Shown here: piece after piece, positions 6,590 to 57,897 of the stretch | Layout: each line of letters begins with the position of its first letter | Numbering within the stretch: the stretch's first letter is position 1 | Origin: Escherichia phage kaset | Length of the DNA stretch: 64,000 bases | Direction: 5' to 3' (one strand) | Sequence record: PV245935.1 | Position numbers and translations under genes: made by a program | Notes under the pieces: generated by a model | What the model was told of the DNA's origin: nothing | The model's input: the letters and a program-made list of their open reading frames with translations, nothing else | Databases searched by the model: none

Positions 6590-6960
6590 CTGGCAGTGGA
6601 TTGCCGCAGGATTTTACGCGTATAATGACGTATCATCCGTATCAAGTAAGTAGTTGTTTTCAAAAGAATCTTACGGATGATACGGATGATACGCGTTGCC
6701 GCGATACTTTATAGGAATTCAAATAAATTAATTTAAAATTATATATCTAATTTAATTTTATTTTTTTATAAACTCTTATATATGAAAAGTATCCGTATCA
6801 TCCGTATCATCCGTAGCACACCAGTGATAGCGCGGCTTATACACCGATACGGATAAAAATACGCCTCATTTTATCCGTATCATCCGTATCACACTAATTA
6901 AGGCGCGGCTATATCGGTTGTTATACATATTCAAACCATAATTATTGTTTGCCTAAGTTT
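6590..6960. repeat. noncoding region with 9-bp ATCATCCGT/ACGGATGAT repeats in both orientations plus CGTATAATGACGTA box (copy A)
   Basis: tandem copies at 6631-6644, 6672-6695 (inverted), 6791-6816, 6872-6890; a ~45 bp core is nearly identical to 58758-58800. Confidence 0.7.
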
Positions 6961-29370: not shown

Positions 29371-29398
29371 ATTATGAATATTAATAGTATAGGCTCAA
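29371..29398 (-). promoter_or_regulatory. sigma70-like promoter for the 29354-28585 two-gene unit
   Basis: on minus strand TTGAGC-N16-CATAAT followed by AAAAGGTGA RBS. Confidence 0.35.
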
Positions 29399-32589: not shown

Positions 32590-33147
32590 TTACTTTTTGC
32601 TTTTAGGCAAGGTTATTTTAGCTTCTTTATACTCAAAGACGCTAATATCTTCACTGACTGGATTACCCGCTTCCAGCTGTTCTTTTACGAATGACTTCAG
32701 TGTAGCAGAATGAACGCCTTGTTTCAACGTGGCTTCAATACCGTCTTCACGCAGCGCGGCAACAATCTCTTGCGCTTGCTCGATTTCTTCGCGACCGAAC
32801 TCAGCCGTGACGCTGGACTTGATCAAGCCGCCGTAACCGTTGTTGACAAGCCAATCGAATACTTTCAATTCATTTTCTTTCTTAATTGAAGCATTGACTT
32901 TTGACTCGACCTTGATTTTGGTCTTGTCTTCAAGCTTGATTTCGGACACGCCAAGCTCATCCATAACGCCAGGAAGCAGAACAGTTTTGATTTCACTGAT
33001 GCGCTGCTTTTGCATATCAGCTTCATCTTCAAGCTCTGTCAAAGCTTCTTGGCGTTCTGCCAATTCCGATACTAAGCGCGCAAGGCGCTCTTGGATGCTC
33101 TCAGGAGCGACCTGCGGCAAATCATCTTCCCAATTAATATTGCTCAT
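32590..33147 (-). CDS. hypothetical replication/recombination-associated protein
   Basis: 185 aa, coiled-coil N-terminus; start lies in copy 1 of a 52-bp tandem duplication. Confidence 0.45.
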   Translation of the reverse strand: MSNINWEDDLPQVAPESIQERLARLVSELAERQEALTELEDEADMQKQRISEIKTVLLPGVMDELGVSEIKLEDKTKIKVESKVNASIKKENELKVFDWLVNNGYGGLIKSSVTAEFGREEIEQAQEIVAALREDGIEATLKQGVHSATLKSFVKEQLEAGNPVSEDISVFEYKEAKITLPKSKK

Positions 33148-33240
33148 ATTTTACCTTCTTGCATTAGCCCTTCAACACGGGTCATTTGATATTGCTCATA
33201 TTTTACCTTCTTGCATTAGCCCTTCAACACGGGTCATTTG
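33137..33240. repeat. perfect tandem duplication, 2 x 52 bp
   Basis: 33137-33188 and 33189-33240 are identical (atattgctcatattttaccttcttgcattagcccttcaacacgggtcatttg). Confidence 0.85.
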
Positions 33241-42689: not shown

Positions 42690-42730
42690 TTCTGCTTCAA
42701 TGATTAAAGTATACGCCCATTGAAGCAGAA
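42690..42730. promoter_or_regulatory. perfect 13-bp inverted repeat
   Basis: TTCTGCTTCAATG-N15-CATTGAAGCAGAA; loop contains TATACT; directly upstream of secreted-protein gene. Confidence 0.5.
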
Positions 42731-43732: not shown

Positions 43733-43810
43733 TTGTCCTTTGTGGGTGATATGAGAAGTATAATAGCTAAATTATTTTACAGCAACAAGTCATTTTATTT
43801 AGTACAGATG

Positions 43811-46374: not shown

Positions 46375-46477
46375 TTCAGGCGACCTTTGTTAGTGCGGAA
46401 ATATTTTCTGATAGTATAATTGCAGATATAGTATAAAGCAAAGTAAATCGAAATTGTGAACTAAATGGTAAATATTG

Positions 46478-46505
46478 TTGACTTTGTATCACTCAATATT
46501 ATACT
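46478..46505 (+). promoter_or_regulatory. sigma70-like promoter for rightward early operon
   Basis: TTGACT-N16-TATACT, 30 bp upstream of ATG 46535. Confidence 0.45.
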
Positions 46506-46534
46506 GCAGGTATTGATCACCGAAGGAAAGAAAG

Positions 46535-47617
46535 ATGGCTAGTTTAAGAGAAGAAGCAAAAATAATCGAAGAGTTTTTGACGGAACTCCAAAGAGGCATT
46601 CCAGAAGATGAACGCGTCATGACTGTGTTTGCGCCTGAAGCAACGGTGCAGACCGACGAGCGCGGCAAAAAGATTAACAGCAGCTTCTGGCCTAAGCCTT
46701 GGAAGCTTGGCAAGCCGCTGATGCAACATCAGAACGGTTACGCCTGCATAAGTTCAATGCGCAAGTCTCCCAACCCAAAGACAGGCGAGATGCGATACTG
46801 GCGCACGGAATCGGCTTTCGGTCATGGCATGGCAATGATGGTCGACGACATCGGACACGGTAAAGGGTCAAAGGGCGATTTAGATTTGGAGTTCTTTTTC
46901 GAGCGTCTGAAGCCAACCGTTATCGTTGAGACTTCACCGAACAACCATCAGCTGTGGTACTTCTTTAAAGAACCGATTGACCATCTTATTCAGTTCAAAG
47001 CATTCCTTGGGTCTTTCGTAAACATGGTACTCAAGAAGGGCGGCGACAACACGATTAAAGACGTGACGCGCGTGGGCCGTGTTCCTGGGTGCATCAACAA
47101 TAAGCGTGTGACTCACGACGGCCCCTATAAATATGTCGATGAGAACGGCGACCCGTTCCGCTGCCGACTTGTTCATGCAGACTATTCTTTGCGCTACACA
47201 ATCGAAGAGATTTGCCAAGCATTCGGTTTCCACGTCGTTATGCCGCAAAAGCGTGAAATTCAAATCGACGTTGACGAATACAAATATGACGCTGTTTGGT
47301 ATAAGATAGCCCAGCAAATCCTTGCGCGCAATAAGATGGGCGAAGGGTCCGATGGCGATGTGGTTGAAAACATGTCAGGTAAATGCCGCATCATCTGTCC
47401 TTGGGGTGAAGAGCACACCAACGGCGACCCATACGGCGCTTATTTTCGCGGCCCAATCCCTGGCGCTGAACATGAATTCGTTTTCGGTTGCGCTCACGAC
47501 TGTCACCGGAAAGGGGAAGGCAAGAAAGGCTGGACCGCTTTTGTTGAAGCAGTAGTCATGCCTTATATTGAGAATCAACTTGATATGATAAATCGTCGCG
47601 CAGGTGGCATAAAATAG
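46535..47617 (+). CDS. primase-polymerase-like protein (AEP family) with C-terminal zinc-binding region
   Basis: 360 aa; MVDDIGHG (DxD-like), NHQLWYF (His motif), Cys/His cluster CRIICPWGEEH...CAHDCH. Confidence 0.5.
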   Translation: MASLREEAKIIEEFLTELQRGIPEDERVMTVFAPEATVQTDERGKKINSSFWPKPWKLGKPLMQHQNGYACISSMRKSPNPKTGEMRYWRTESAFGHGMAMMVDDIGHGKGSKGDLDLEFFFERLKPTVIVETSPNNHQLWYFFKEPIDHLIQFKAFLGSFVNMVLKKGGDNTIKDVTRVGRVPGCINNKRVTHDGPYKYVDENGDPFRCRLVHADYSLRYTIEEICQAFGFHVVMPQKREIQIDVDEYKYDAVWYKIAQQILARNKMGEGSDGDVVENMSGKCRIICPWGEEHTNGDPYGAYFRGPIPGAEHEFVFGCAHDCHRKGEGKKGWTAFVEAVVMPYIENQLDMINRRAGGIK

Positions 47618-51965: not shown

Positions 51966-52187
51966 ATGAGCAAGAAAACTCTTAAGGCTGGCGACCGTAT
52001 CCGTTGGATGTCAGGGCAGAATATGCGCGCAGGCACCATCCTTGAGCTGGACCAATACCTTACTGATTCACGCGGTCGCAATCATTACCGCGTTCGAATC
52101 GATACGGTAAAAGAAGATGACAAGTCACTTGTTGGTGAAGTGGTCATCGTTACTCCACGTCAAATTAAGGCGGCTTGTGAAGCATGA
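51966..52187 (+). CDS. hypothetical protein
   Basis: 73 aa from internal ATG of ORF 51801-52187. Confidence 0.4.
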   Translation: MSKKTLKAGDRIRWMSGQNMRAGTILELDQYLTDSRGRNHYRVRIDTVKEDDKSLVGEVVIVTPRQIKAACEA

Positions 52188-52339
52188 ATAAATTTCAGTT
52201 TAACGATAACAAGGTTAGTAAAGCAGACGCAATCAAGCAGCTTCGCCGCGTGCTTGAAGCCAGCGGCCACACGAAAGAGCGCGCACGCGTCTTAGCCAAA
52301 GAACATTATAAACGTTTCGTGTCACAAATCAGAGGTTGA
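52184..52339 (+). CDS. small hypothetical protein (51 aa)
   Basis: ATGA overlap with upstream stop; below ORF-track cutoff. Confidence 0.3.
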   Translation: MNKFQFNDNKVSKADAIKQLRRVLEASGHTKERARVLAKEHYKRFVSQIRG

Positions 52340-52341
52340 CC

Positions 52342-52689
52342 ATGGCTCATGTTAAAGACGAAGTGCTGTTTGGCGCAGAGATTAAGAAGCGTGTCAGAGA
52401 AATGGCAGGAGAAGAAAGAATGAAGCCACTGCGAAAAGGTTTTGATCACATCAATGGCGTATCCGGCACGAAGGAGATGGGTGTGTTGGTAAAAGACATT
52501 CGCGTTGGCGATGTCATGGTCATCGACCGACAAGCGCGAGTCGTTATCCAGGTGCAACCGAACGATGATGAAGGATGTGTCCTATTGAAGCTGAAGAAGC
52601 TTTCATCCAGCCCAGCAAAGGCCGTCATCAAGAAGGTCTGGCCAGAAGGATTACGCAAACTCATTCGTCGACCCGTGGAGAATGTGTGA
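52342..52689 (+). CDS. hypothetical protein
   Basis: ATG 52342 after AGAGGT RBS. Confidence 0.4.
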   Translation: MAHVKDEVLFGAEIKKRVREMAGEERMKPLRKGFDHINGVSGTKEMGVLVKDIRVGDVMVIDRQARVVIQVQPNDDEGCVLLKLKKLSSSPAKAVIKKVWPEGLRKLIRRPVENV

Positions 52690-52925
52690 TGGAAGATTAT
52701 ATCAATTCTATGTACATGGCATTCTATGTCGTACAACTTCCCAATGGCGCGGTATTTTATGGCGAGTATACCTTTGACGTTCAATATGACGTCTCAGAGC
52801 GTACAGTGTTAACAAGGGAGTTGATTGCGGACCTTAAGGACGACATCAAGCGCGTCGCGCGGCAGCAGTTCAATTTGGATGACACCGTCATCGTTCGAAT
52901 TACCGGAATAACAGAGGTGCAGTGA
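52689..52925 (+). CDS. hypothetical protein
   Basis: 78 aa; start overlaps upstream stop. Confidence 0.4.
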   Translation: MEDYINSMYMAFYVVQLPNGAVFYGEYTFDVQYDVSERTVLTRELIADLKDDIKRVARQQFNLDDTVIVRITGITEVQ

Positions 52926-53254
52926 TGACCCGTGATCAGATACTCGCCGCGCATGAGCGTGAAAAGGCGAAAGAAATCTGGAAAAGACACAACGCCTTTG
53001 CCGAGTCCTATTACTTCTTAAAGAGGTGCATAAAAGAGAATGTGAGGATGGGTGATACCGTTTTGACATTTAACATTTTGTCTTATGGTAATAAGCTTAA
53101 TGCAATATATGCTTGTCGACTAGCCAACATGAAGTTCGATAGAGGAGGTGACGGAGAGTTGACCATCTATCGATTCTCTCACCGGACGGGTGATACAAAG
53201 ATAACAAGGACACGTGAACAGATAGAGATTGACTTACTTCACTATGTAAAATGA
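52922..53254 (+). CDS. hypothetical protein
   Basis: 110 aa; ATGA overlap. Confidence 0.4.
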   Translation: MMTRDQILAAHEREKAKEIWKRHNAFAESYYFLKRCIKENVRMGDTVLTFNILSYGNKLNAIYACRLANMKFDRGGDGELTIYRFSHRTGDTKITRTREQIEIDLLHYVK

Positions 53255-53259
53255 ATATC

Positions 53260-53292
53260 AAAAAGGTGAGCTAAATGCTTGCCTTTTCTTTT
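53260..53292 (+). terminator. hairpin + T-tract (copy 1 of repeated terminator-promoter cassette)
   Basis: AAAAAGGTGAGCtaaatGCTTGCCTTTT then CTTTTAT; same element at 54522-54553. Confidence 0.5.
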
Positions 53293-53339
53293 ATCAATAC
53301 TTATACTCTTTTCATCAAGACTAACAAGCGAGGTGAATT

Positions 53340-53657
53340 ATGATTTACTTAGGCATCGACCAGGAACAAGATGAGCAGTTAGGAAGCGTGTTAAACGTAG
53401 AATTAAACACAGCTGTACACGTCAAGCCTTGGCCAGAGGCGCACCCCGACGTAGTTGTACCCGTTGCACCTTGGACGCGTTACGTTGCCATTGACGATAA
53501 CGGCCTTGTCCATTGTTACTCAGAAAAGCCGACATACTTCGAAAAGTATCACCAATGGCTTATGACTGGTTGGGCAAAGGTGCGCTGTTGCGGCGAAGTC
53601 GGCCTGGAAGGATGGGGCTTCAAGGCTAGTGAATCATGCGTCGAGGTGCAATTATGA
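53340..53657 (+). CDS. hypothetical protein
   Basis: 105 aa; RBS GAGGTGA. Confidence 0.4.
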   Translation: MIYLGIDQEQDEQLGSVLNVELNTAVHVKPWPEAHPDVVVPVAPWTRYVAIDDNGLVHCYSEKPTYFEKYHQWLMTGWAKVRCCGEVGLEGWGFKASESCVEVQL

Positions 53658-53872
53658 ATGCCGCGCTGGGTAAGCTGTCTTTCAACAAACGCAATGAGCT
53701 GCGCATGGTATCGCTCTTTCAACAAACGCATTTATCACTAATCAAGATTGCAAACAAGGCCTACTCTCTAAATTGTCCTGAAGAAGAATGGAAAGAATTG
53801 AATGAGCGTCGTAAACAATTACAAAAGGCTGCATTCAAGCTGCAGCAATATGCCATGGAGTATGCAAAATGA
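53654..53872 (+). CDS. hypothetical protein
   Basis: 72 aa; ATGA overlap. Confidence 0.4.
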   Translation: MNAALGKLSFNKRNELRMVSLFQQTHLSLIKIANKAYSLNCPEEEWKELNERRKQLQKAAFKLQQYAMEYAK

Positions 53873-54261
53873 GAATGAAACGTTGCCCGTATTGCCACGA
53901 TGTGATGCATCTTCCACATGAAGAGTTTGTGCAGCACATGACTCATTGTGATAAGAATCCTAAAAGCGAGAGTCAACTTGAAGAAAGAATGTTTCTGGTT
54001 TCGTTCAAGTATTCAGCTTATGACGCGCAACTGGCTTACGGTGCGAGCGGTGCACCAAATGCTATTTACCGACCAACAACATTGAGAAGCGACATAGACT
54101 CAATACAGCTTGTGGCCTGGATTAACGTTAAGGAAGGAATCACGGCGCACTTTATCGCGCGCATCCAATCCGAGATTCTACGAATCAAGCGCGAATACAA
54201 CCGTGACATTACTGAAGTGAAGGTGCTGACCATCACACCGATGAATAAGGAGTTGCTGTGA
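53869..54261 (+). CDS. hypothetical Cys/His-rich protein
   Basis: 130 aa; N-terminal CPYCHDVMHLPHEEFVQHMTHC. Confidence 0.4.
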   Translation: MRMKRCPYCHDVMHLPHEEFVQHMTHCDKNPKSESQLEERMFLVSFKYSAYDAQLAYGASGAPNAIYRPTTLRSDIDSIQLVAWINVKEGITAHFIARIQSEILRIKREYNRDITEVKVLTITPMNKELL

Positions 54262-54518
54262 ACAAGGGTCCGATGACTAAGCTGGCCGTTGCCGCGCGGA
54301 AGCTTCGACAAGCTGTTAATGGGTCGCGGCCCGTGGTGTTAACACTCGACGACGCGAAGGCGCTGGTAGAGCTGCTCGACGAGCACAACCGACGAAAGAA
54401 TCTGGAGAACACATTACGCTGGCGCGTCACCCCAGCCGGGCGGGAGAGCGAGAAGAAAGCTTACTTGCGACGCAAACTAAGGTCAGTCGGCCTTCACGAA
54501 GAGGCGAAGAATATTTAA
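54258..54518 (+). CDS. hypothetical protein
   Basis: 86 aa basic protein. Confidence 0.4.
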   Translation: MNKGPMTKLAVAARKLRQAVNGSRPVVLTLDDAKALVELLDEHNRRKNLENTLRWRVTPAGRESEKKAYLRRKLRSVGLHEEAKNI

Positions 54519-54521
54519 TTC

Positions 54522-54553
54522 AAAAAGGTGAGCTAAATGCTTGCCTTTTTATT
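54522..54553 (+). terminator. hairpin + T-tract (copy 2 of repeated terminator-promoter cassette)
   Basis: CAAAAAGGTGAGCtaaatGCTTGCCTTTTTATTT; followed by TATACT and AAGGAG RBS. Confidence 0.5.
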
Positions 54554-54596
54554 TGCCTGTATTATACTTAGTTCATCAAGCAAAGGAGAATTGATT

Positions 54597-54893
54597 ATGA
54601 GTTACGACGAAAGGTTTGGCAGAAGCGGGCTGTTTCATGATGCTGTATACAAAGACAGCCAAGATGTCGTCTGCGTATTGAGAAATGATTCTTACGGCGT
54701 GCTCAAGCCGTTTAAGGTCGGTGAGACATACGAATTGTTTCACGGATGGATTACGCAACCAAACAACCTTCCTGATATGGAAGTCTGGTGGATAGAATAC
54801 AAGGGCCAGGCGCATCGTTGCAAGGTCGTAGAAATACGCGGCGTGACACACTATCAATCTATTATCAGCGGATTTGTTTTTAAGGAGATTTGA
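54597..54893 (+). CDS. hypothetical protein
   Basis: 98 aa; FKVGETYELF motif shared with ORF 56345-56686. Confidence 0.4.
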   Translation: MSYDERFGRSGLFHDAVYKDSQDVVCVLRNDSYGVLKPFKVGETYELFHGWITQPNNLPDMEVWWIEYKGQAHRCKVVEIRGVTHYQSIISGFVFKEI

Positions 54894-54895
54894 TT

Positions 54896-55198
54896 ATGAG
54901 TACCGAAGCGATGAAGAAAAAGGTTTTGAACGCTTTGCAAGAAGCCGTGAACTGTGGTGCCATTAAAGTATTTCATGAATTGCAATTTGGTGAAGGTGAC
55001 GCGGTAGAATTTTACAGCAATAAAGACGGTCTTGCGACAATTTTCTTTTCAGAGCAAAGGGTTGGTGAGTGCATCCTGCAAATTGGTGGATATAGGCTTG
55101 TCGTCGACGATGCATTTATCACCTGCGCTGATGGCCTTAATCCGATGTTGACGTTTGAGCGTCGCGGCATCCGTGTTGCAACATTTGGAGGACAGTGA
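54896..55198 (+). CDS. hypothetical protein
   Basis: ATG 54896 after TAAGGAGA RBS. Confidence 0.4.
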   Translation: MSTEAMKKKVLNALQEAVNCGAIKVFHELQFGEGDAVEFYSNKDGLATIFFSEQRVGECILQIGGYRLVVDDAFITCADGLNPMLTFERRGIRVATFGGQ

Positions 55199-55383
55199 TG
55201 AGCACCGAAGTACACAACGCATCAGCCTTGGTAAGCTTTTACCGTAACAAAGGCGTGTCGCTCGTTAAAACGCCGCAAGGGATGTTGTTCTTTGGCACGC
55301 GATTCCTTAAAGCATCGGAGCGTGAAACGCTGTCCAAGTTCGACCAGAAAACATTACACGCAGTTTGGAGAAGACAACAATGA
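55198..55383 (+). CDS. hypothetical protein
   Basis: 61 aa; RBS GGAGG. Confidence 0.35.
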   Translation: MSTEVHNASALVSFYRNKGVSLVKTPQGMLFFGTRFLKASERETLSKFDQKTLHAVWRRQQ

Positions 55384-55673
55384 GACTAAGCCTAGCGCAA
55401 ATTCAAACATTATACCGAATGGAAGACGGCACGCCATACATGCTGCGCGGCGACCGCAAGAAGGCTTATGAAAAGCGGCCATCACTATTTCACGACATCA
55501 ATGCGCCATCAATACCTGTCTTATTCCGGCTTGGTCTTGTTGATTGGGCGGTGCCAGGAGAGAAAGACCCGACGCGTTATTCATCCGTGGTGATGACAAA
55601 AGCAGGTCGCGCGGCATTAAAAGAAATTAAAGAGAATATGGCTGGAGGTAAATATTATGACATCAAATCTTAA
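55380..55673 (+). CDS. hypothetical protein
   Basis: 97 aa; ATGA overlap. Confidence 0.4.
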   Translation: MRLSLAQIQTLYRMEDGTPYMLRGDRKKAYEKRPSLFHDINAPSIPVLFRLGLVDWAVPGEKDPTRYSSVVMTKAGRAALKEIKENMAGGKYYDIKS

Positions 55674-55839
55674 GGCCCGTTTATTATTCATCAATCCGCA
55701 TGTGCCGTATAAGATTAGCAAGCGCACCTGGCTTAATATTTACAACCGCAGCGGCGACCGTTGCTTGTACAAGGCGAAGCGACGCAATAAAAGATACTTT
55801 CGTGTAGCGCAACCAAGTTTTCTCGGAGTAAAGAAATGA
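55657..55839 (+). CDS. small basic protein
   Basis: 60 aa; GGAGG RBS; stop overlaps next ATG; overlaps previous gene by 17 nt. Confidence 0.35.
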   Translation: MTSNLKARLLFINPHVPYKISKRTWLNIYNRSGDRCLYKAKRRNKRYFRVAQPSFLGVKK

Positions 55840-56345
55840 AAATCGAACAACTCGAAGCAGTACTGGAAATGGCTGTAAAGGCAGGCGCAATCAAAAGCTA
55901 TCGTCGCGAGAAGTCTGAGGATTCTGCACACTTTTGTCGCAACTTCTATATCGTCGGCAACCTTAACGACCACTACACCATCGAGTGGTATATTAACATA
56001 ATGACCCTTAAGTCGCGCAGCATGGAGCTTTGGTGTGATGACATCTGTCTTTCGAATACTCACCCAAGCTATGATGTCGCCCTGGCGTTCTATCACGGAA
56101 GCCGTCAACCTGTCGCCCACATCGGTGAGAAGCATGAGCAATTGAAGGAGAAACCAACGGCAGCTGACGGCTGGGTTGATTGGGACGGCGGCGACTTGAA
56201 TCCAGTACCAGGAAAGAAGGTGCTTTACATTCTGCGCGACGGTGCTACAGCTACAAAGCCGATTGCATCAAATGAATTGCGCTGGGAAAAGATTGAGCGC
56301 CACCGCGATGGCGATGTCATCAAATACAAAGTCGTGGAGGAATAA
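55836..56345 (+). CDS. hypothetical protein with W-x-W-GG-NPVPGK C-terminal module
   Basis: 169 aa; C-terminal WVDWDGGDLNPVPGKKV paralogous to C-terminus of ORF 57229-57897. Confidence 0.45.
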   Translation: MKIEQLEAVLEMAVKAGAIKSYRREKSEDSAHFCRNFYIVGNLNDHYTIEWYINIMTLKSRSMELWCDDICLSNTHPSYDVALAFYHGSRQPVAHIGEKHEQLKEKPTAADGWVDWDGGDLNPVPGKKVLYILRDGATATKPIASNELRWEKIERHRDGDVIKYKVVEE

Positions 56346-56686
56346 TGGAAGAGCAAGAAGGCCGTGAGCTAACGTTCGACGAGCAAATGAAAGAGCTTCA
56401 GCGCACATCGCCGCTGCGCGGTAAGGTTGTTGACATTGAGGCGAGCGAATCCAATCTCACCAAGTGGCGAATCAAGTGCACCAGCACAAGCAAGGATATG
56501 TTAAGCTTCAAAGTCGGTCAGACTTATTTGCTTTATGAGGCAAAAGGACTTATTATTGATGGAAGGCAAATTGTCTTCACGGTAGTCAACGGCATGCGTT
56601 GGTTCGTGAAGCGTGATGTAGAGGGTCGTGACATGTTTGTCGCAGGCTTCCCAGAAACAAGATTCAAATTGGAGAAGGTTAAATGA
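56345..56686 (+). CDS. hypothetical protein
   Basis: 113 aa; RBS GGAGGA. Confidence 0.4.
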   Translation: MEEQEGRELTFDEQMKELQRTSPLRGKVVDIEASESNLTKWRIKCTSTSKDMLSFKVGQTYLLYEAKGLIIDGRQIVFTVVNGMRWFVKRDVEGRDMFVAGFPETRFKLEKVK

Positions 56687-57012
56687 AATTGAAATGGTAC
56701 GTGGACCCTGAGCCAACAGGCCAATACAGGTCATTCCAACGTCGCGGCTGGCCGACTTGTTACAGCGGTAATCCCGATAAAGAAGATTGCGAGCTGCTTG
56801 CCGCTATCGTAAGCCTCGACCGTCACGGCTATGAAGGCCACTACGCGAGAGCAACCAACCTTCGGCTTAAGGTGCGCATCCATTTCAAGGTCGCAGGCGA
56901 GGACCGCACCGGACTCTCCAAGGAAGAGTTCAGCAGCATCGCTGAAGCAAAGGCATGGCTCAAGGCGTTCTATAAGAACAACCCTAAATTCTATCCAACT
57001 AAGGATGCATAA
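56683..57012 (+). CDS. hypothetical protein
   Basis: 109 aa; ATGA overlap. Confidence 0.4.
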   Translation: MKLKWYVDPEPTGQYRSFQRRGWPTCYSGNPDKEDCELLAAIVSLDRHGYEGHYARATNLRLKVRIHFKVAGEDRTGLSKEEFSSIAEAKAWLKAFYKNNPKFYPTKDA

Positions 57013-57245
57013 TGACCGATAAACAATACGCAGTCGGGCAACGTGACATCGAGCAACTCGACGAGGGCGGCTATTATACGCGCCACATCTATGCCATGAC
57101 GCATGAAGGACTTTACAGCAAGTCGGACATCGCCGCTGAACTGGCCCATCGTGACTTGCAAATTGACGTGTTGCGTCTCGCGCTTGAGAAGCAAACGCAA
57201 ATCGCTATTGAAATTTTGGAGAAGTTAAATGATACAACGTTATGA
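57012..57245 (+). CDS. hypothetical protein
   Basis: 77 aa. Confidence 0.4.
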   Translation: MTDKQYAVGQRDIEQLDEGGYYTRHIYAMTHEGLYSKSDIAAELAHRDLQIDVLRLALEKQTQIAIEILEKLNDTTL

Positions 57246-57897
57246 TGTTGATTATTGCACGCAGCACGCTTGTACATGCGAAGTTGTAAAGGATGATGAA
57301 GGCGGCTACGTTGAATATGAGGACTATGCCGCGCTGGAAGCGAAATATAGTTCTCTTACGTACATTGACAGCGAACCGTTTGCATACATCATTCAGGACA
57401 AGTATGAAAGGGAGAAAGGATTAGATGGTCATCTCAGTCGCAGTCATGTATCCAAATATGTTAGCCAGGAAGACATCAACGAGCATGAAATAACTTGCAT
57501 CCCGCTCTATCGCCAAGCACAGTTGGCGATAGCAATAAAACCGTTGGCAAAAACCGATGATGAGGACTACGCCGCGCTGGAAGCGAAATATGGTGAAGCG
57601 CAACGCGAGTTGGTTGCATTACGCTCACAGGTCCGTGATGCGTCGGCGCTCGTTAAGCAGTTGCACGACGTTGTTGCTACTATAGGCGTGGATGTTGATG
57701 CTTGCGAAAAGCAGGAAGAAGCGTGGACCGCGTGGTTTGGTGGAGAGAATCCGGTGCCTGGGAAGATGGTTGTGTTTGAGTTGTTAAACGGTTACAAATC
57801 AAAAGAGGCTGTGCCTTCGGATAATTTGAACTGGGGTGCAGTGGCAAGCCCTTTTGGCGAAGACATTGTTGCTTATCGGGTCGTTAAGGAGGGGTGA
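57229..57897 (+). CDS. hypothetical protein with internal repeat and W-x-W-GG-NPVPGK C-terminal module
   Basis: 222 aa; EDYAALEAKY occurs twice; C-terminal WTAWFGGENPVPGKMV. Confidence 0.45.
   Translation: MIQRYDVDYCTQHACTCEVVKDDEGGYVEYEDYAALEAKYSSLTYIDSEPFAYIIQDKYEREKGLDGHLSRSHVSKYVSQEDINEHEITCIPLYRQAQLAIAIKPLAKTDDEDYAALEAKYGEAQRELVALRSQVRDASALVKQLHDVVATIGVDVDACEKQEEAWTAWFGGENPVPGKMVVFELLNGYKSKEAVPSDNLNWGAVASPFGEDIVAYRVVKEG

Follow-up and report, generated by a model that had tools for sequence, protein, structure and literature searches.

How is a long array of overlapping genes divided for transcription, and can a pair of related intergenic segments within it mark the divisions? The question is raised by the window analyzed here, a stretch of 64,000 nucleotides from Escherichia phage kaset (sequence record PV245935.1). 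The phage, a myovirus of E. coli, belongs to the genus Wifcevirus and has WFH, WFC, and FEC19 among its relatives. Its rightward arm spans 46.5 to 58.35 kb (11.8 kb), is headed by the primase gene, and also encodes a helicase-like ATPase. According to the BASEL study, Pbunavirus is a distant relative of Wifcevirus, and Wifcevirus replication has been reported to be unusually fast (PMC11990801). A literature search found no transcriptome of any Wifcevirus.

Two related segments in the rightward arm

An earlier note on this DNA had described a tightly overlapping gene array with two intergenic segments, each containing a hairpin, a T-tract, TTATACT, TTCATCAAG, a ribosome-binding site, and an ATG. 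All of these elements are present, and the genes adjoining the segments overlap or abut. Cassette A (53255-53339) lies between a stop codon at 53252-53254 and the ATG at 53340, and cassette B (54519-54596) lies between a stop codon at 54516-54518 and the ATG at 54597 (Table 1). A PHROGs search matched the genes around the cassettes only to families of "unknown function."

Table 1. Positions of the cassette elements and of related features in the window
Feature	Position	Strand	Details
Main promoter-like site at arm head	46478..46505	+	TTGACT-16-TATACT; -10 hexamer common to the cassettes
Gene upstream of cassette A	52922-53254	+	TGA stop at 53252-53254; orthologous CDS end identical in relatives
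Hairpin A	53261..53287	+	11-bp stem AAAAGGUGAGC/GCUUGCCUUUU; two G.U pairs; 5-nt loop UAAAU
-35-like hexamer A	53279..53284	+	TTGCCT; within hairpin 3' arm; invariant in all copies
Remainder of T-rich tail, predicted terminator A	53288..53296	+	CTTTTATCA; doubles as part of the predicted promoter spacer
-10 hexamer A (predicted)	53302..53307	+	TATACT; invariant in all copies, adjacent bases vary
TTCATCAAG in A	53311..53319	+	Spans predicted start site and first transcribed bases
Shine-Dalgarno and ATG of first module gene	53330..53342	+	GAGGTGA; ATG at 53340; RBS annotated in phage Mansfield
Module between A and B	53340..54518	+	Four small overlapping genes: 53340-53657, 53654-53872, 53869-54261, 54258-54518
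Hairpin B	54522..54550	+	12 pairs; stem and loop as in A
-35-like hexamer B	54541..54546	+	TTGCCT; within hairpin 3' arm
-10 hexamer B (predicted)	54563..54568	+	TATACT; invariant
TTCATCAAG in B	54572..54580	+	Predicted start A at 54575
Shine-Dalgarno and ATG of gene 3' of B	54583..54599	+	AAGGAG; ATG at 54597
Predicted arm-end terminator	58365..58393	+	GGGCCAATCGGCCC and T-tract

Cassettes A and B share an exact 30-nt block, TCAAAAAGGTGAGCTAAATGCTTGCCTTTT, at 53258-53287 and 54520-54549, respectively. When up to 3 mismatches were allowed, the window contained these two copies only, compared with 0 matches in 100 shuffles and a chance expectation of 0. The earlier description of the two ∼80-bp segments as near-identical holds for this block but not for the segments as wholes, which are 76.5% identical over the entire intergenic regions and 65% identical in the part after the hairpin. 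The conserved islands in that part are TTATACT, TTCATCAAG, and ATTATG. From the hairpin onward, both cassettes have the same order of elements: TTGCCT, 17 (A) or 16 (B) nucleotides, TATACT, TTCATCAAG, a Shine-Dalgarno sequence, and the ATG.

A search of the window with an nhmmer profile found no further true copies, and the only weak matches (E = 0.07 to 0.17) fell at two other promoter regions of the rightward arm. The predicted arm-end terminator could be a third, degenerate relative of the cassettes, because its 3' flank, CCTTTTTGTTTGCCTGT, matches the segment after the stem of B (a shared 17-mer, with 0.02 expected). A third full cassette at 58365-58413 was rejected despite the 17-mer, as the arm-end terminator is not conserved in WFH, including the TTGCCT in this interval. 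No match to the cassette was found in 5,426 E. coli genomes or in PLSDB, which were searched for a host or plasmid source.

Predicted terminator, promoter, and leader

Each segment is probably a composite cassette in which an intrinsic (Rho-independent) terminator is fused to a host sigma-70-type promoter. The hairpins fold with energies of -14.2 kcal/mol in A (z = -4.7) and -14.7 kcal/mol in B (z = -3.8). The fold is strand specific, being weaker on the opposite strand (-11.8 kcal/mol) because the hairpin contains two G.U pairs. On the transcribed strand, and downstream of a stop codon, each cassette has a G+C-containing stem, a short loop, and a U-rich tail that begins directly 3' of the stem, as expected of an intrinsic terminator; in A, the first four T's of the T-tract belong to the stem end. 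The stem was invariant in 38 copies, and the covariation test (0 compensatory pairs) is uninformative because the stem never varies. In the GenBank records of WFH and WFC, both orthologous hairpins are annotated as "putative transcriptional terminator, -10.10" (ARNold; Korf et al. 2019, PMC6563267). In Asteriusvirus jumbo phages, convergent genes are separated by terminators with nearly identical stems; these matches, and others in unrelated bacteria, were rejected as relatives of the cassette and are instead generic terminators. Termination at the cassettes may be only partial, since the stem is short and has two G.U pairs. The 5' arm of the stem also resembles a ribosome-binding site.

The predicted promoters have the form TTGCCT-17-TATACT in A and TTGCCT-16-TATACT in B. 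Both hexamers were invariant in 42 copies, while the spacer sequence differs between A and B. The promoter score is only 9/12, with a -35 match of 4/6, and a generic promoter scan was near background (37 matches versus 29 expected). At least 7 of the 12 sense-strand copies of TATACT are intergenic, and noncoding sequence makes up 3.9% of the window (P = 9e-8). The hexamer also precedes other gene blocks of the phage, among them the head of the arm, where 130 nt at the promoter-like site are identical in four genomes. As judged from sequence, TATACT is the preferred and recurrent candidate -10 box of this phage, and both predicted cassette promoters look like ordinary constitutive host-type promoters. 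Their spacing places the predicted start sites at the A at 53314, 7 nt after the -10 hexamer, and at the A at 54575. A longer open reading frame called from 54537, the start of which lies inside the hairpin, is probably not real.

TTCATCAAG is identical in 42/42 copies, even though its surroundings vary, both in the 3 nt that precede it and in the leader that follows; the lone variant, TTCATCAAT, was found in a metagenome contig. A plain sigma-70 promoter does not account for this invariance. A role for TTCATCAAG in a structured leader or in anti-Shine-Dalgarno pairing was rejected, as the leader folds no better than shuffled sequences (z = -0.05 to -0.9). With up to 1 mismatch, TTCATCAAG occurs 58 times in the window versus 24 expected, but it was rejected as a dispersed motif because the excess stems from coding sequence. 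Its seven further exact copies in the window all fall within genes, five of them in antisense orientation, and read as Leu-Asp-Glu codons. TTCATCAAG is absent at the other TATACT promoters of the phage.

In the proposed mechanism, transcripts arriving from upstream would form the GGUGAGC/GCUUGCC hairpin, lengthened by A.U pairs and followed by the U-tract, at which a fraction of them would terminate. Host RNA polymerase would restart ∼25 nt downstream from TTGCCT-N16/17-TATACT, at the A of TTCATCAAG, which would give the new transcript a short leader containing a strong Shine-Dalgarno sequence. The predicted terminator and promoter would be physically interlocked, since the 3' arm of the stem doubles as the -35 hexamer and the T-tract supplies the spacer between the two hexamers. 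The paralogous cassettes would bracket a putatively dispensable block of four to five genes and split the arm into three units, each shielded from upstream read-through. Termination, initiation, and the start site at the cassettes are what we infer from these sequences. The earlier note had already favored a terminator-plus-promoter reading, which is supported by the anatomy, the genus-wide conservation, the recurrent TATACT, and the ARNold annotations; because of this support, subdivision of the long rightward transcript by the cassettes is a reasonable inference. The note's further suggestions, that the operon is early and that its subdivision perhaps gives temporal control, find no support in the sequences; both predicted promoters have the constitutive, host-type look described above.

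Conservation and rearrangement across Wifcevirus

Exactly two cassette copies are present in each of the 28 Wifcevirus genomes in the database (28/28), and matches in a search of a phage collection were confined to this genus. Pairwise identity in cassette columns is 0.98 to 1.00, versus 0.66 to 0.95 in the flanking genes, for which the mean p-distance is 0.15 to 0.2. Other boundaries in the arm are also highly conserved (0.99 at 53642-53661 and 0.97 at 52922-52941). The flanks of the 30-nt block are specific to A or to B and stably distinct in all genomes, and therefore there is no sign of ongoing homogenization between the two; variants of the B loop were not copied into A.

The gene content of the module between the cassettes varies among relatives. 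A foreign source for the module was rejected, as its GC content and skews are not deviant. Several genomes carry recombination scars on the cassettes. In WFC, an extra gene is bracketed by a 21-nt perfect direct repeat on the cassette, and in Bas101, an extra gene lies between 14-nt perfect (27-nt imperfect) repeats on the cassette. In six genomes, there is a gene replacement directly 3' of the ATG of B. A single contig of 943 bp, L044, which comes from a draft assembly labeled Xanthomonas (X. pisi DSM 18956, JPLE01), lacks the module and carries one A/B hybrid cassette, whose crossover falls between TATACT and TTCATCAAG.

Five kinds of junction fall on cassette edges, some with 14- to 21-nt direct repeats, and almost all gene boundaries of the arm are junctions too. 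At nearly all of these boundaries, the distance matrices of the two adjoining genes show no correlation (r of about 0 to 0.2). Recombination is therefore not enriched at the cassettes, and they were rejected as recombination hotspots; linkage across cassette B is the highest in the arm (r = 0.65). As conserved 80-nt patches in a highly mosaic region, the cassettes could still serve as substrates for homologous recombination, which would insert, swap, or delete small genes.

Alternative readings and known systems

The hairpin might act only as a terminator or 3'-end stabilizer, in which case the hexamers would not function as a promoter and the genes downstream would depend on read-through or on processed transcripts for their expression. 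A -35 match of 4/6, a promoter scan near background, and GenBank annotators who labeled terminators alone are all in keeping with this. Several observations make it distinctly unlikely: TATACT is invariant in 42 copies amid varying neighbors, the spacers of A and B have diverged in sequence while their length has been held at 16 to 17, and TATACT is strongly enriched in intergenic regions before genes. Without re-initiation in the middle of the 11.8-kb arm, moreover, ∼18 downstream genes would be starved. It is extremely improbable that the segment instead encodes a leader peptide of 22 codons, which would start at an ATG in the hairpin (53275) and end at a stop overlapping the next ATG. This ATG does follow an SD-like AAGGTGA at a short spacing, and 30-aa CDSs have been annotated in Bas98 and Bas99, but both signals would be hidden in the hairpin, and the same ATG in B shares the reading frame of the gene that follows. 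The peptide was rejected because the frame in which TTCATCAAG would be read differs between A and B and because single-nucleotide indels in RCIP0319, SP13, and Bas99 disrupt the frame.

The invariance of TTCATCAAG (42/42) next to varying sequence, together with a hairpin loop and G.U pairs conserved beyond purely structural need, could point to a phage or host factor that coregulates the cassettes through TTCATCAAG, the hairpin, or both, as an operator, activator site, or pause site, and so exerts temporal control. A subset of the promoters of phage 14-1 requires a phage factor (PMC10914365). We regard this idea as unlikely: no candidate regulator was found, the flanking genes match only families of unknown function, TTCATCAAG is missing from other TATACT promoters while its other copies in the window are intragenic, leader RNA structure is not significant, and the needs of the start site and initial transcript alone could explain the conservation. 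Coregulation by such a factor is compatible with the composite cassette and does not exclude it. It is very improbable that the segments are recombination linkers or duplication remnants that are homogenized by exchange and have little regulatory role. The rearrangement scars inside them, the existence of an A × B deletion product, and the unusual conservation of other gene boundaries in the arm would fit such an origin, but the flanks of A and B are stably different, B loop variants have not passed to A, and recombination across the cassettes is no more common than elsewhere. The conserved islands, furthermore, coincide exactly with the predicted promoter and terminator positions.

As composite terminator-promoter units, the cassettes are best seen as analogues of the PeSL (promoter-early stem-loop) cassettes of T4-like myoviruses (Arbiol, Comeau & Krisch 2010, PMC2839356; Comeau et al. 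2014, PMC4122927), and not as homologues, because the window is from a Wifcevirus and, within the phage collection, the cassette matches Wifcevirus only. PeSLs likewise have a sigma-70-like -35/-10 pair ∼17 bp apart and a stem-loop acting as a terminator or attenuator; in one subclass the stem-loop overlaps the -35 hexamer, as it does here, and G.T pairs have been noted in PeSL stems too. Both kinds of cassette are found in plastic regions, surrounded by small genes without known function. PeSLs sit beside indels or gene replacements, and so do the Wifcevirus cassettes, in common with almost all gene boundaries of their arm. Recombination between neighboring PeSLs removes the genes between them, for which the L044 hybrid (a single contig) is a parallel. 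Unlike the T4-like phages, Wifcevirus is related to Pbunavirus, and its cassettes have no sequence homology to published PeSLs. There are two copies per Wifcevirus genome versus dozens of PeSLs, yet both are in the most plastic arm; these copies are far more conserved and are orthologous genus-wide, and they show no recombination enrichment relative to other gene boundaries. The location of the -35 hexamer inside the terminator stem, the likeness to PeSLs, and the recombination scars had been missed by the earlier note. The WFH and WFC records annotate only a 19-nt hairpin at each site and make no mention of the promoter fused to it, the paralogous relationship between the sites, the invariant TTCATCAAG, or the scars.

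In Pbunavirus 14-1, ONT-cappable-seq mapped 26 sigma-70-like promoters, several of them active in E. coli, as well as 14 terminators, and its transcription is organized in 55 short units of ∼1 kb that overlap (Putzeys et al. 2024, PMC10914365). For a related genus, then, experiments have established that internal promoters and terminators subdivide gene arrays. Phage 14-1 has no DNA similarity to the cassette, and no repeated terminator-promoter cassette has been reported there.

Morons, found in lambdoid and other phages, are genes with their own promoter and terminator. The block between A and B resembles a moron in that it would be a transcriptionally autonomous, dispensable unit between a predicted promoter and terminator. 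It differs in being co-oriented with its neighbors, in its nondeviant composition, and in being flanked by two copies of one conserved cassette instead of block-specific signals. Morons have been compared with PeSLs before (PMC2839356).

The cassette pair is a real and strongly conserved element of a known, PeSL-like type and not a new kind of system. A bolder proposal, which we consider doubtful, is that PeSL-style mobile regulatory cassettes exist beyond the T4-like phages, with the Wifcevirus unit acting as a landing pad at which homologous recombination captures and excises small genes, possibly through mini-circles, and with TTCATCAAG recognized by a coregulating factor. Wifceviruses are candidates for biocontrol or therapy against E. 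coli O157 and Shigella. Most of their small genes without known function lie in the rightward arm, where the cassettes stand out as the clearest predicted internal signals for transcription; they can guide annotators to the starts and ends of transcription units, and they flag a putatively dispensable block that may be replaceable in phage engineering. They also extend the PeSL idea, that compact terminator-promoter units may double as recombination patches, to a lineage unrelated to T4, which is a modest but useful generalization.

Two cassettes in the rightward gene arm

All 28 phage records matched by the segment 52000-56000 belong to Wifcevirus, a little-studied genus of Escherichia/Shigella myoviruses distantly related to Pbunavirus (PMC11990801; PMC6563267), and they include WFH, WFC, FEC19, ECML-117, and Bas98-101. 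Identity to these records was 87-91% across this variable region, rising to 95-98% in the better-conserved genes immediately upstream. The rightward arm opens with a primase gene (phrog_4861) and also contains a P-loop ATPase/helicase-like gene, after which ∼25 small, closely abutting genes of unknown function fill the remainder. Both cassettes are located in this arm.

Coordinates of gene blocks, cassettes, promoter-like sites, and repeats in the window
Feature	Position	Detail
Structural genes	1-28.5 kb	rightward
Second gene block	28.8-46.4 kb	leftward
Arm	46.5-58.35 kb	rightward
Gap A (cassette A)	53255-53339	upstream stop 53252-53254; next ATG 53340
Module between A and B	53340-54518	four small overlapping genes
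Gap B (cassette B)	54519-54596	upstream stop 54516-54518; next ATG 54597
Exact 30-nt block	53258-53287; 54520-54549	common to both gaps
ORF call	54537-54893	begins within B hairpin
TATACT site, head of arm	46478-46505	TTGACT-16-TATACT
Main promoter region of arm	46443-46539	
TATACT sites, leftward block	29386-29391; 42708-42713; 43757-43762; 46413-46430	- strand
TTTACT-16/17-TATACT pair	61222-61270; 61619-61668	
Arm-closing terminator region	58365-58413	
66-nt repeat	6668-6733; 58756-58821	85% identical
Inverted copies (ATCCGTATCATCCGTATC) of repeat units	6791-6910; 58935-58960	near 66-nt repeats
23-nt CCACTAGCCAATTTGCACTATAA-like motifs	59169-60372	four copies, right of arm
52-nt tandem duplication	33131-33234	96% identical

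An earlier note had described the two gaps as near-identical segments carrying a hairpin with T-tract, TTATACT, a conserved motif, a ribosome-binding site, and the ATG. Every one of these features was found at both cassettes, and near-identity holds for the first 35 nt; it does not extend to the remainder, as A and B are 76.5% identical over the whole gap and 65% identical 3' of the hairpin, where TTATACT, TTCATCAAG, and ATTATG form conserved islands. The 30-nt block occurred only twice in a search of the window allowing up to three mismatches and was absent from 100 shuffles. The search for further copies that the note had proposed yielded no third cassette in the window when run with an nhmmer profile of 42 aligned cassettes, and exactly two matches were present in each of the 28 Wifcevirus records, at 96-100% identity. 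Wifcevirus contigs from IMG/VR and metagenomes contained the same two-copy pattern. We conclude that the cassette pair is real and functional-looking.

In Bas98 (locus L011, 4495-4587) and Bas99 (locus L021, 4502-4594), annotated 30-aa CDSs lie wholly inside cassette A and are probably spurious ORF calls across the terminator-promoter region. One ORF call in the window likewise begins within the B hairpin.

Hairpin and overlapping predicted promoter

As RNA, the 30-nt block forms a stem of 11-12 bp, AAAAGGUGAGC/GCUUGCCUUUU, capped by a 5-nt loop, with a free energy of -14.2 (A) or -14.7 (B) kcal/mol (z = -4.7 and -3.8 versus shuffles), followed immediately by a U-rich tail, UUUUCUUUU in A and UUUUUAUUU in B. 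The complementary strand folds worse (-11.8 kcal/mol, with an internal loop) because two of the stem pairs are G.U, which ties the hairpin signal to the transcribed strand. Among 38 hairpin copies, the only changes were at two loop positions, in the length of the A-run, and at one disruptive stem position (SP13). None of these copies contained compensatory pairs, and covariation therefore argues neither for nor against the fold. In Asteriusvirus jumbo phages and in unrelated bacteria, nearly identical stems separate convergent genes as ordinary terminators, an analogy that supports a terminator reading of the cassettes; these stems are not homologues of the cassettes. Database searches found no cassette match in E. 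coli genomes or plasmids.

A consensus scan identified TTGCCT-17-TATACT at A and TTGCCT-16-TATACT at B, such that the 3' arm of the stem is the -35 hexamer and the T-tract is the promoter spacer. The A of TTCATCAAG, 7 nt past the -10, is the likely start site, followed by a leader of 25 nt (A) or 22 nt (B), GAGGTGA or AAGGAG, and the ATG. A consensus match alone is insufficient evidence of a promoter, as 37 such matches were found over 19 kb versus 29 expected. Two observations strengthen the case: TATACT is the recurrent -10 hexamer of this phage, and the hexamers of the cassettes are invariant. With an automatic mask, 7 of the 12 sense-strand TATACT copies in the first 58 kb were intergenic, with non-coding DNA making up only 3.9% of the sequence (binomial p = 9e-8); inspection raised this to 9 of 12 by adding cassette B (54563) and a site at 42708, both missed because over-long ORF calls covered them. 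Correctly oriented genes follow the intergenic copies, which include sites at the heads of both the arm and the leftward block and in three more gaps. TTGCCT and TATACT were unchanged in all 42 cassette copies (21 genomes), while the A and B spacers differ and -10-adjacent bases are variable.

In the leftward block, intergenic TATACT boxes mostly have TTGCTT, TTGCTG, or TTTACT as their -35 partner, and the recurring pairs thus form a recognizable promoter dialect of the phage's own, TTGCYT/TTTACT ... TATACT. Four genomes are 100% identical across 130 nt at the main promoter region of the arm. There, GTGAACTAAATGG lies upstream of the -35, about one helical turn farther from the -35 than is the hairpin GTGAGCTAAATGC that it resembles (nhmmer E = 0.07). 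Another pair of related, promoter-like elements consists of two TTTACT-16/17-TATACT sites that have a 27-nt segment, TATACTTGTTTATATCGAGACGGGCGA, in common just after them (89% identical). The arm closes with a terminator, GGGCCAATCGGCCC plus T-tract, then CCTTTTTGTTTGCCTGT, a match to the part of cassette B that follows the stem (chance expectation, 0.02), and TTGCCT-16-TATTAT, of which TTGCCT is not conserved in WFH; this region may be a decayed third cassette. The four 23-nt motifs, spaced 180-515 nt apart, may be phage-specific promoters or binding sites. Both 66-nt repeat copies, which contain tandem ACGGATGATACGGATGATACG units, lie in AT-rich non-coding DNA, one preceding structural genes and the other near the expected start of the ∼3.7-kb terminal repeat reported for WFH/WFC; these units may represent an array of the operator, origin, or packaging type. 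The 52-nt tandem duplication is in perfect register at the end of a leftward gene.

In GenBank, WFH and WFC already have a putative terminator annotated at each of the two hairpins (ARNold, -10.10), and the vB_Eco4M-7 paper mentions promoters and terminators solely as software predictions. At these sites, terminators alone have been annotated before; neither the fused promoter nor the A/B paralogy has been described. A search found no transcriptome for Wifcevirus.

Conservation and rearrangement across Wifcevirus

In genomes with both flanks in common, mean pairwise identity was 0.98-1.00 in cassette columns versus 0.66-0.95 in adjacent genes (mean p-distance of 0.15-0.21). Around the 30-nt block, A and B each keep their own flanks, unchanged genus-wide, and no B loop variant was copied into A among the 38 hairpin copies; A and B are thus old paralogues maintained by selection, not by ongoing conversion.

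TTCATCAAG was unchanged in 42 of 42 copies, although both the 3 preceding bases and the leader that follows are variable, and was replaced by TTCATCAAT in one metagenome contig. Of all the features, it alone is left unexplained by a plain promoter. Tests led to the rejection of leader RNA structure or anti-SD pairing via TTCATCAAG and of a foreign composition of the module. A leader peptide starting within the hairpin was dropped on account of the A/B frame conflict and indels, and a dispersed-motif role for TTCATCAAG was dropped because its other copies are coding and mostly antisense.

The A-to-B distance is about 1252, 1262, 1513, 1539, or 2700 nt depending on the genome, and several rearrangement junctions coincide with cassettes. 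WFC, Bas100, and SP13 carry an additional 195-nt gene inside the 5' arm of cassette A, bounded in WFC by a direct repeat of 21 nt without mismatches, AAATGAATATCAAAAAGGTGA; the first half-hairpin copy now serves as the ribosome-binding site of the additional gene. Bas101 has an extra gene 3' of B between copies of TCAAGCAAAGGAGA (a repeat perfect over 14 nt and imperfect over 27 nt), CWP003 has one immediately past the ATG of A, RCIP0319 has a 1.4-kb insertion ahead of B, and six genomes have a different gene immediately past the ATG of B. The draft assembly of Xanthomonas pisi DSM 18956 includes a 943-bp contig, L044 (NZ_JPLE01000312.1), that consists of Wifcevirus DNA ∼94-98% identical to TH32 and AV128 and is presumably a contaminant. 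It begins like cassette A, with the upstream gene of A followed by the hairpin, the A-type spacer, and TATACTC, and continues with the B-type AGTTCATCAAGCAAAGGAG leader, which leads into the gene found after B in FEC19-type genomes. This order, seen in one short contig, is what would be expected of an A-by-B crossover deleting the module. A k-mer assembly artefact is unlikely because A and B share ≤9 nt at the junction, not the 30-nt repeat.

As a control, indels at ordinary gene boundaries overlapped by only 7 nt. Adjacent-gene pairwise distance matrices in 52000-58350 (loci L001 and L007-L023) were almost uncorrelated at nearly all boundaries (Spearman r = 0.01-0.23; r = 0.06 across A, but 0.65 across B), which means that most small genes in the arm, almost without exception, have separate histories. 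The gene boundaries themselves are strongly conserved. Recombination uses the cassettes, yet they are not demonstrable hotspots, as mosaicism is general in the arm.

Resemblance to described systems

Among elements described so far, the promoter-early stem-loop (PeSL) cassette of T4-like phages comes closest. Its stem-loop is a terminator or attenuator that can overlap the -35; PeSLs sit among small genes of unknown function and accompany indels, and recombination between copies can excise the genes between them (PMC2839356, PMC4122927). The Wifcevirus cassettes agree with PeSLs in anatomy and probably in behavior. However, Wifcevirus is unrelated to T4-like phages, and its cassettes lack sequence homology to PeSLs, number two rather than dozens, and are much more strongly conserved. 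By analogy, they would work like PeSLs without being members by descent.

According to long-read transcriptomics, Pbunavirus 14-1 has 55 short, overlapping transcription units, served by 26 sigma-70-like promoters and 14 terminators (PMC10914365). Experiments have thus established that gene arrays are subdivided internally in a genus distantly related to Wifcevirus. The "early" timing and "temporal control" put forward in the earlier note are not supported by any of this evidence. The two cassettes are best read as a predicted PeSL-type terminator-promoter pair that partitions the rightward arm and brackets a presumably dispensable gene block.
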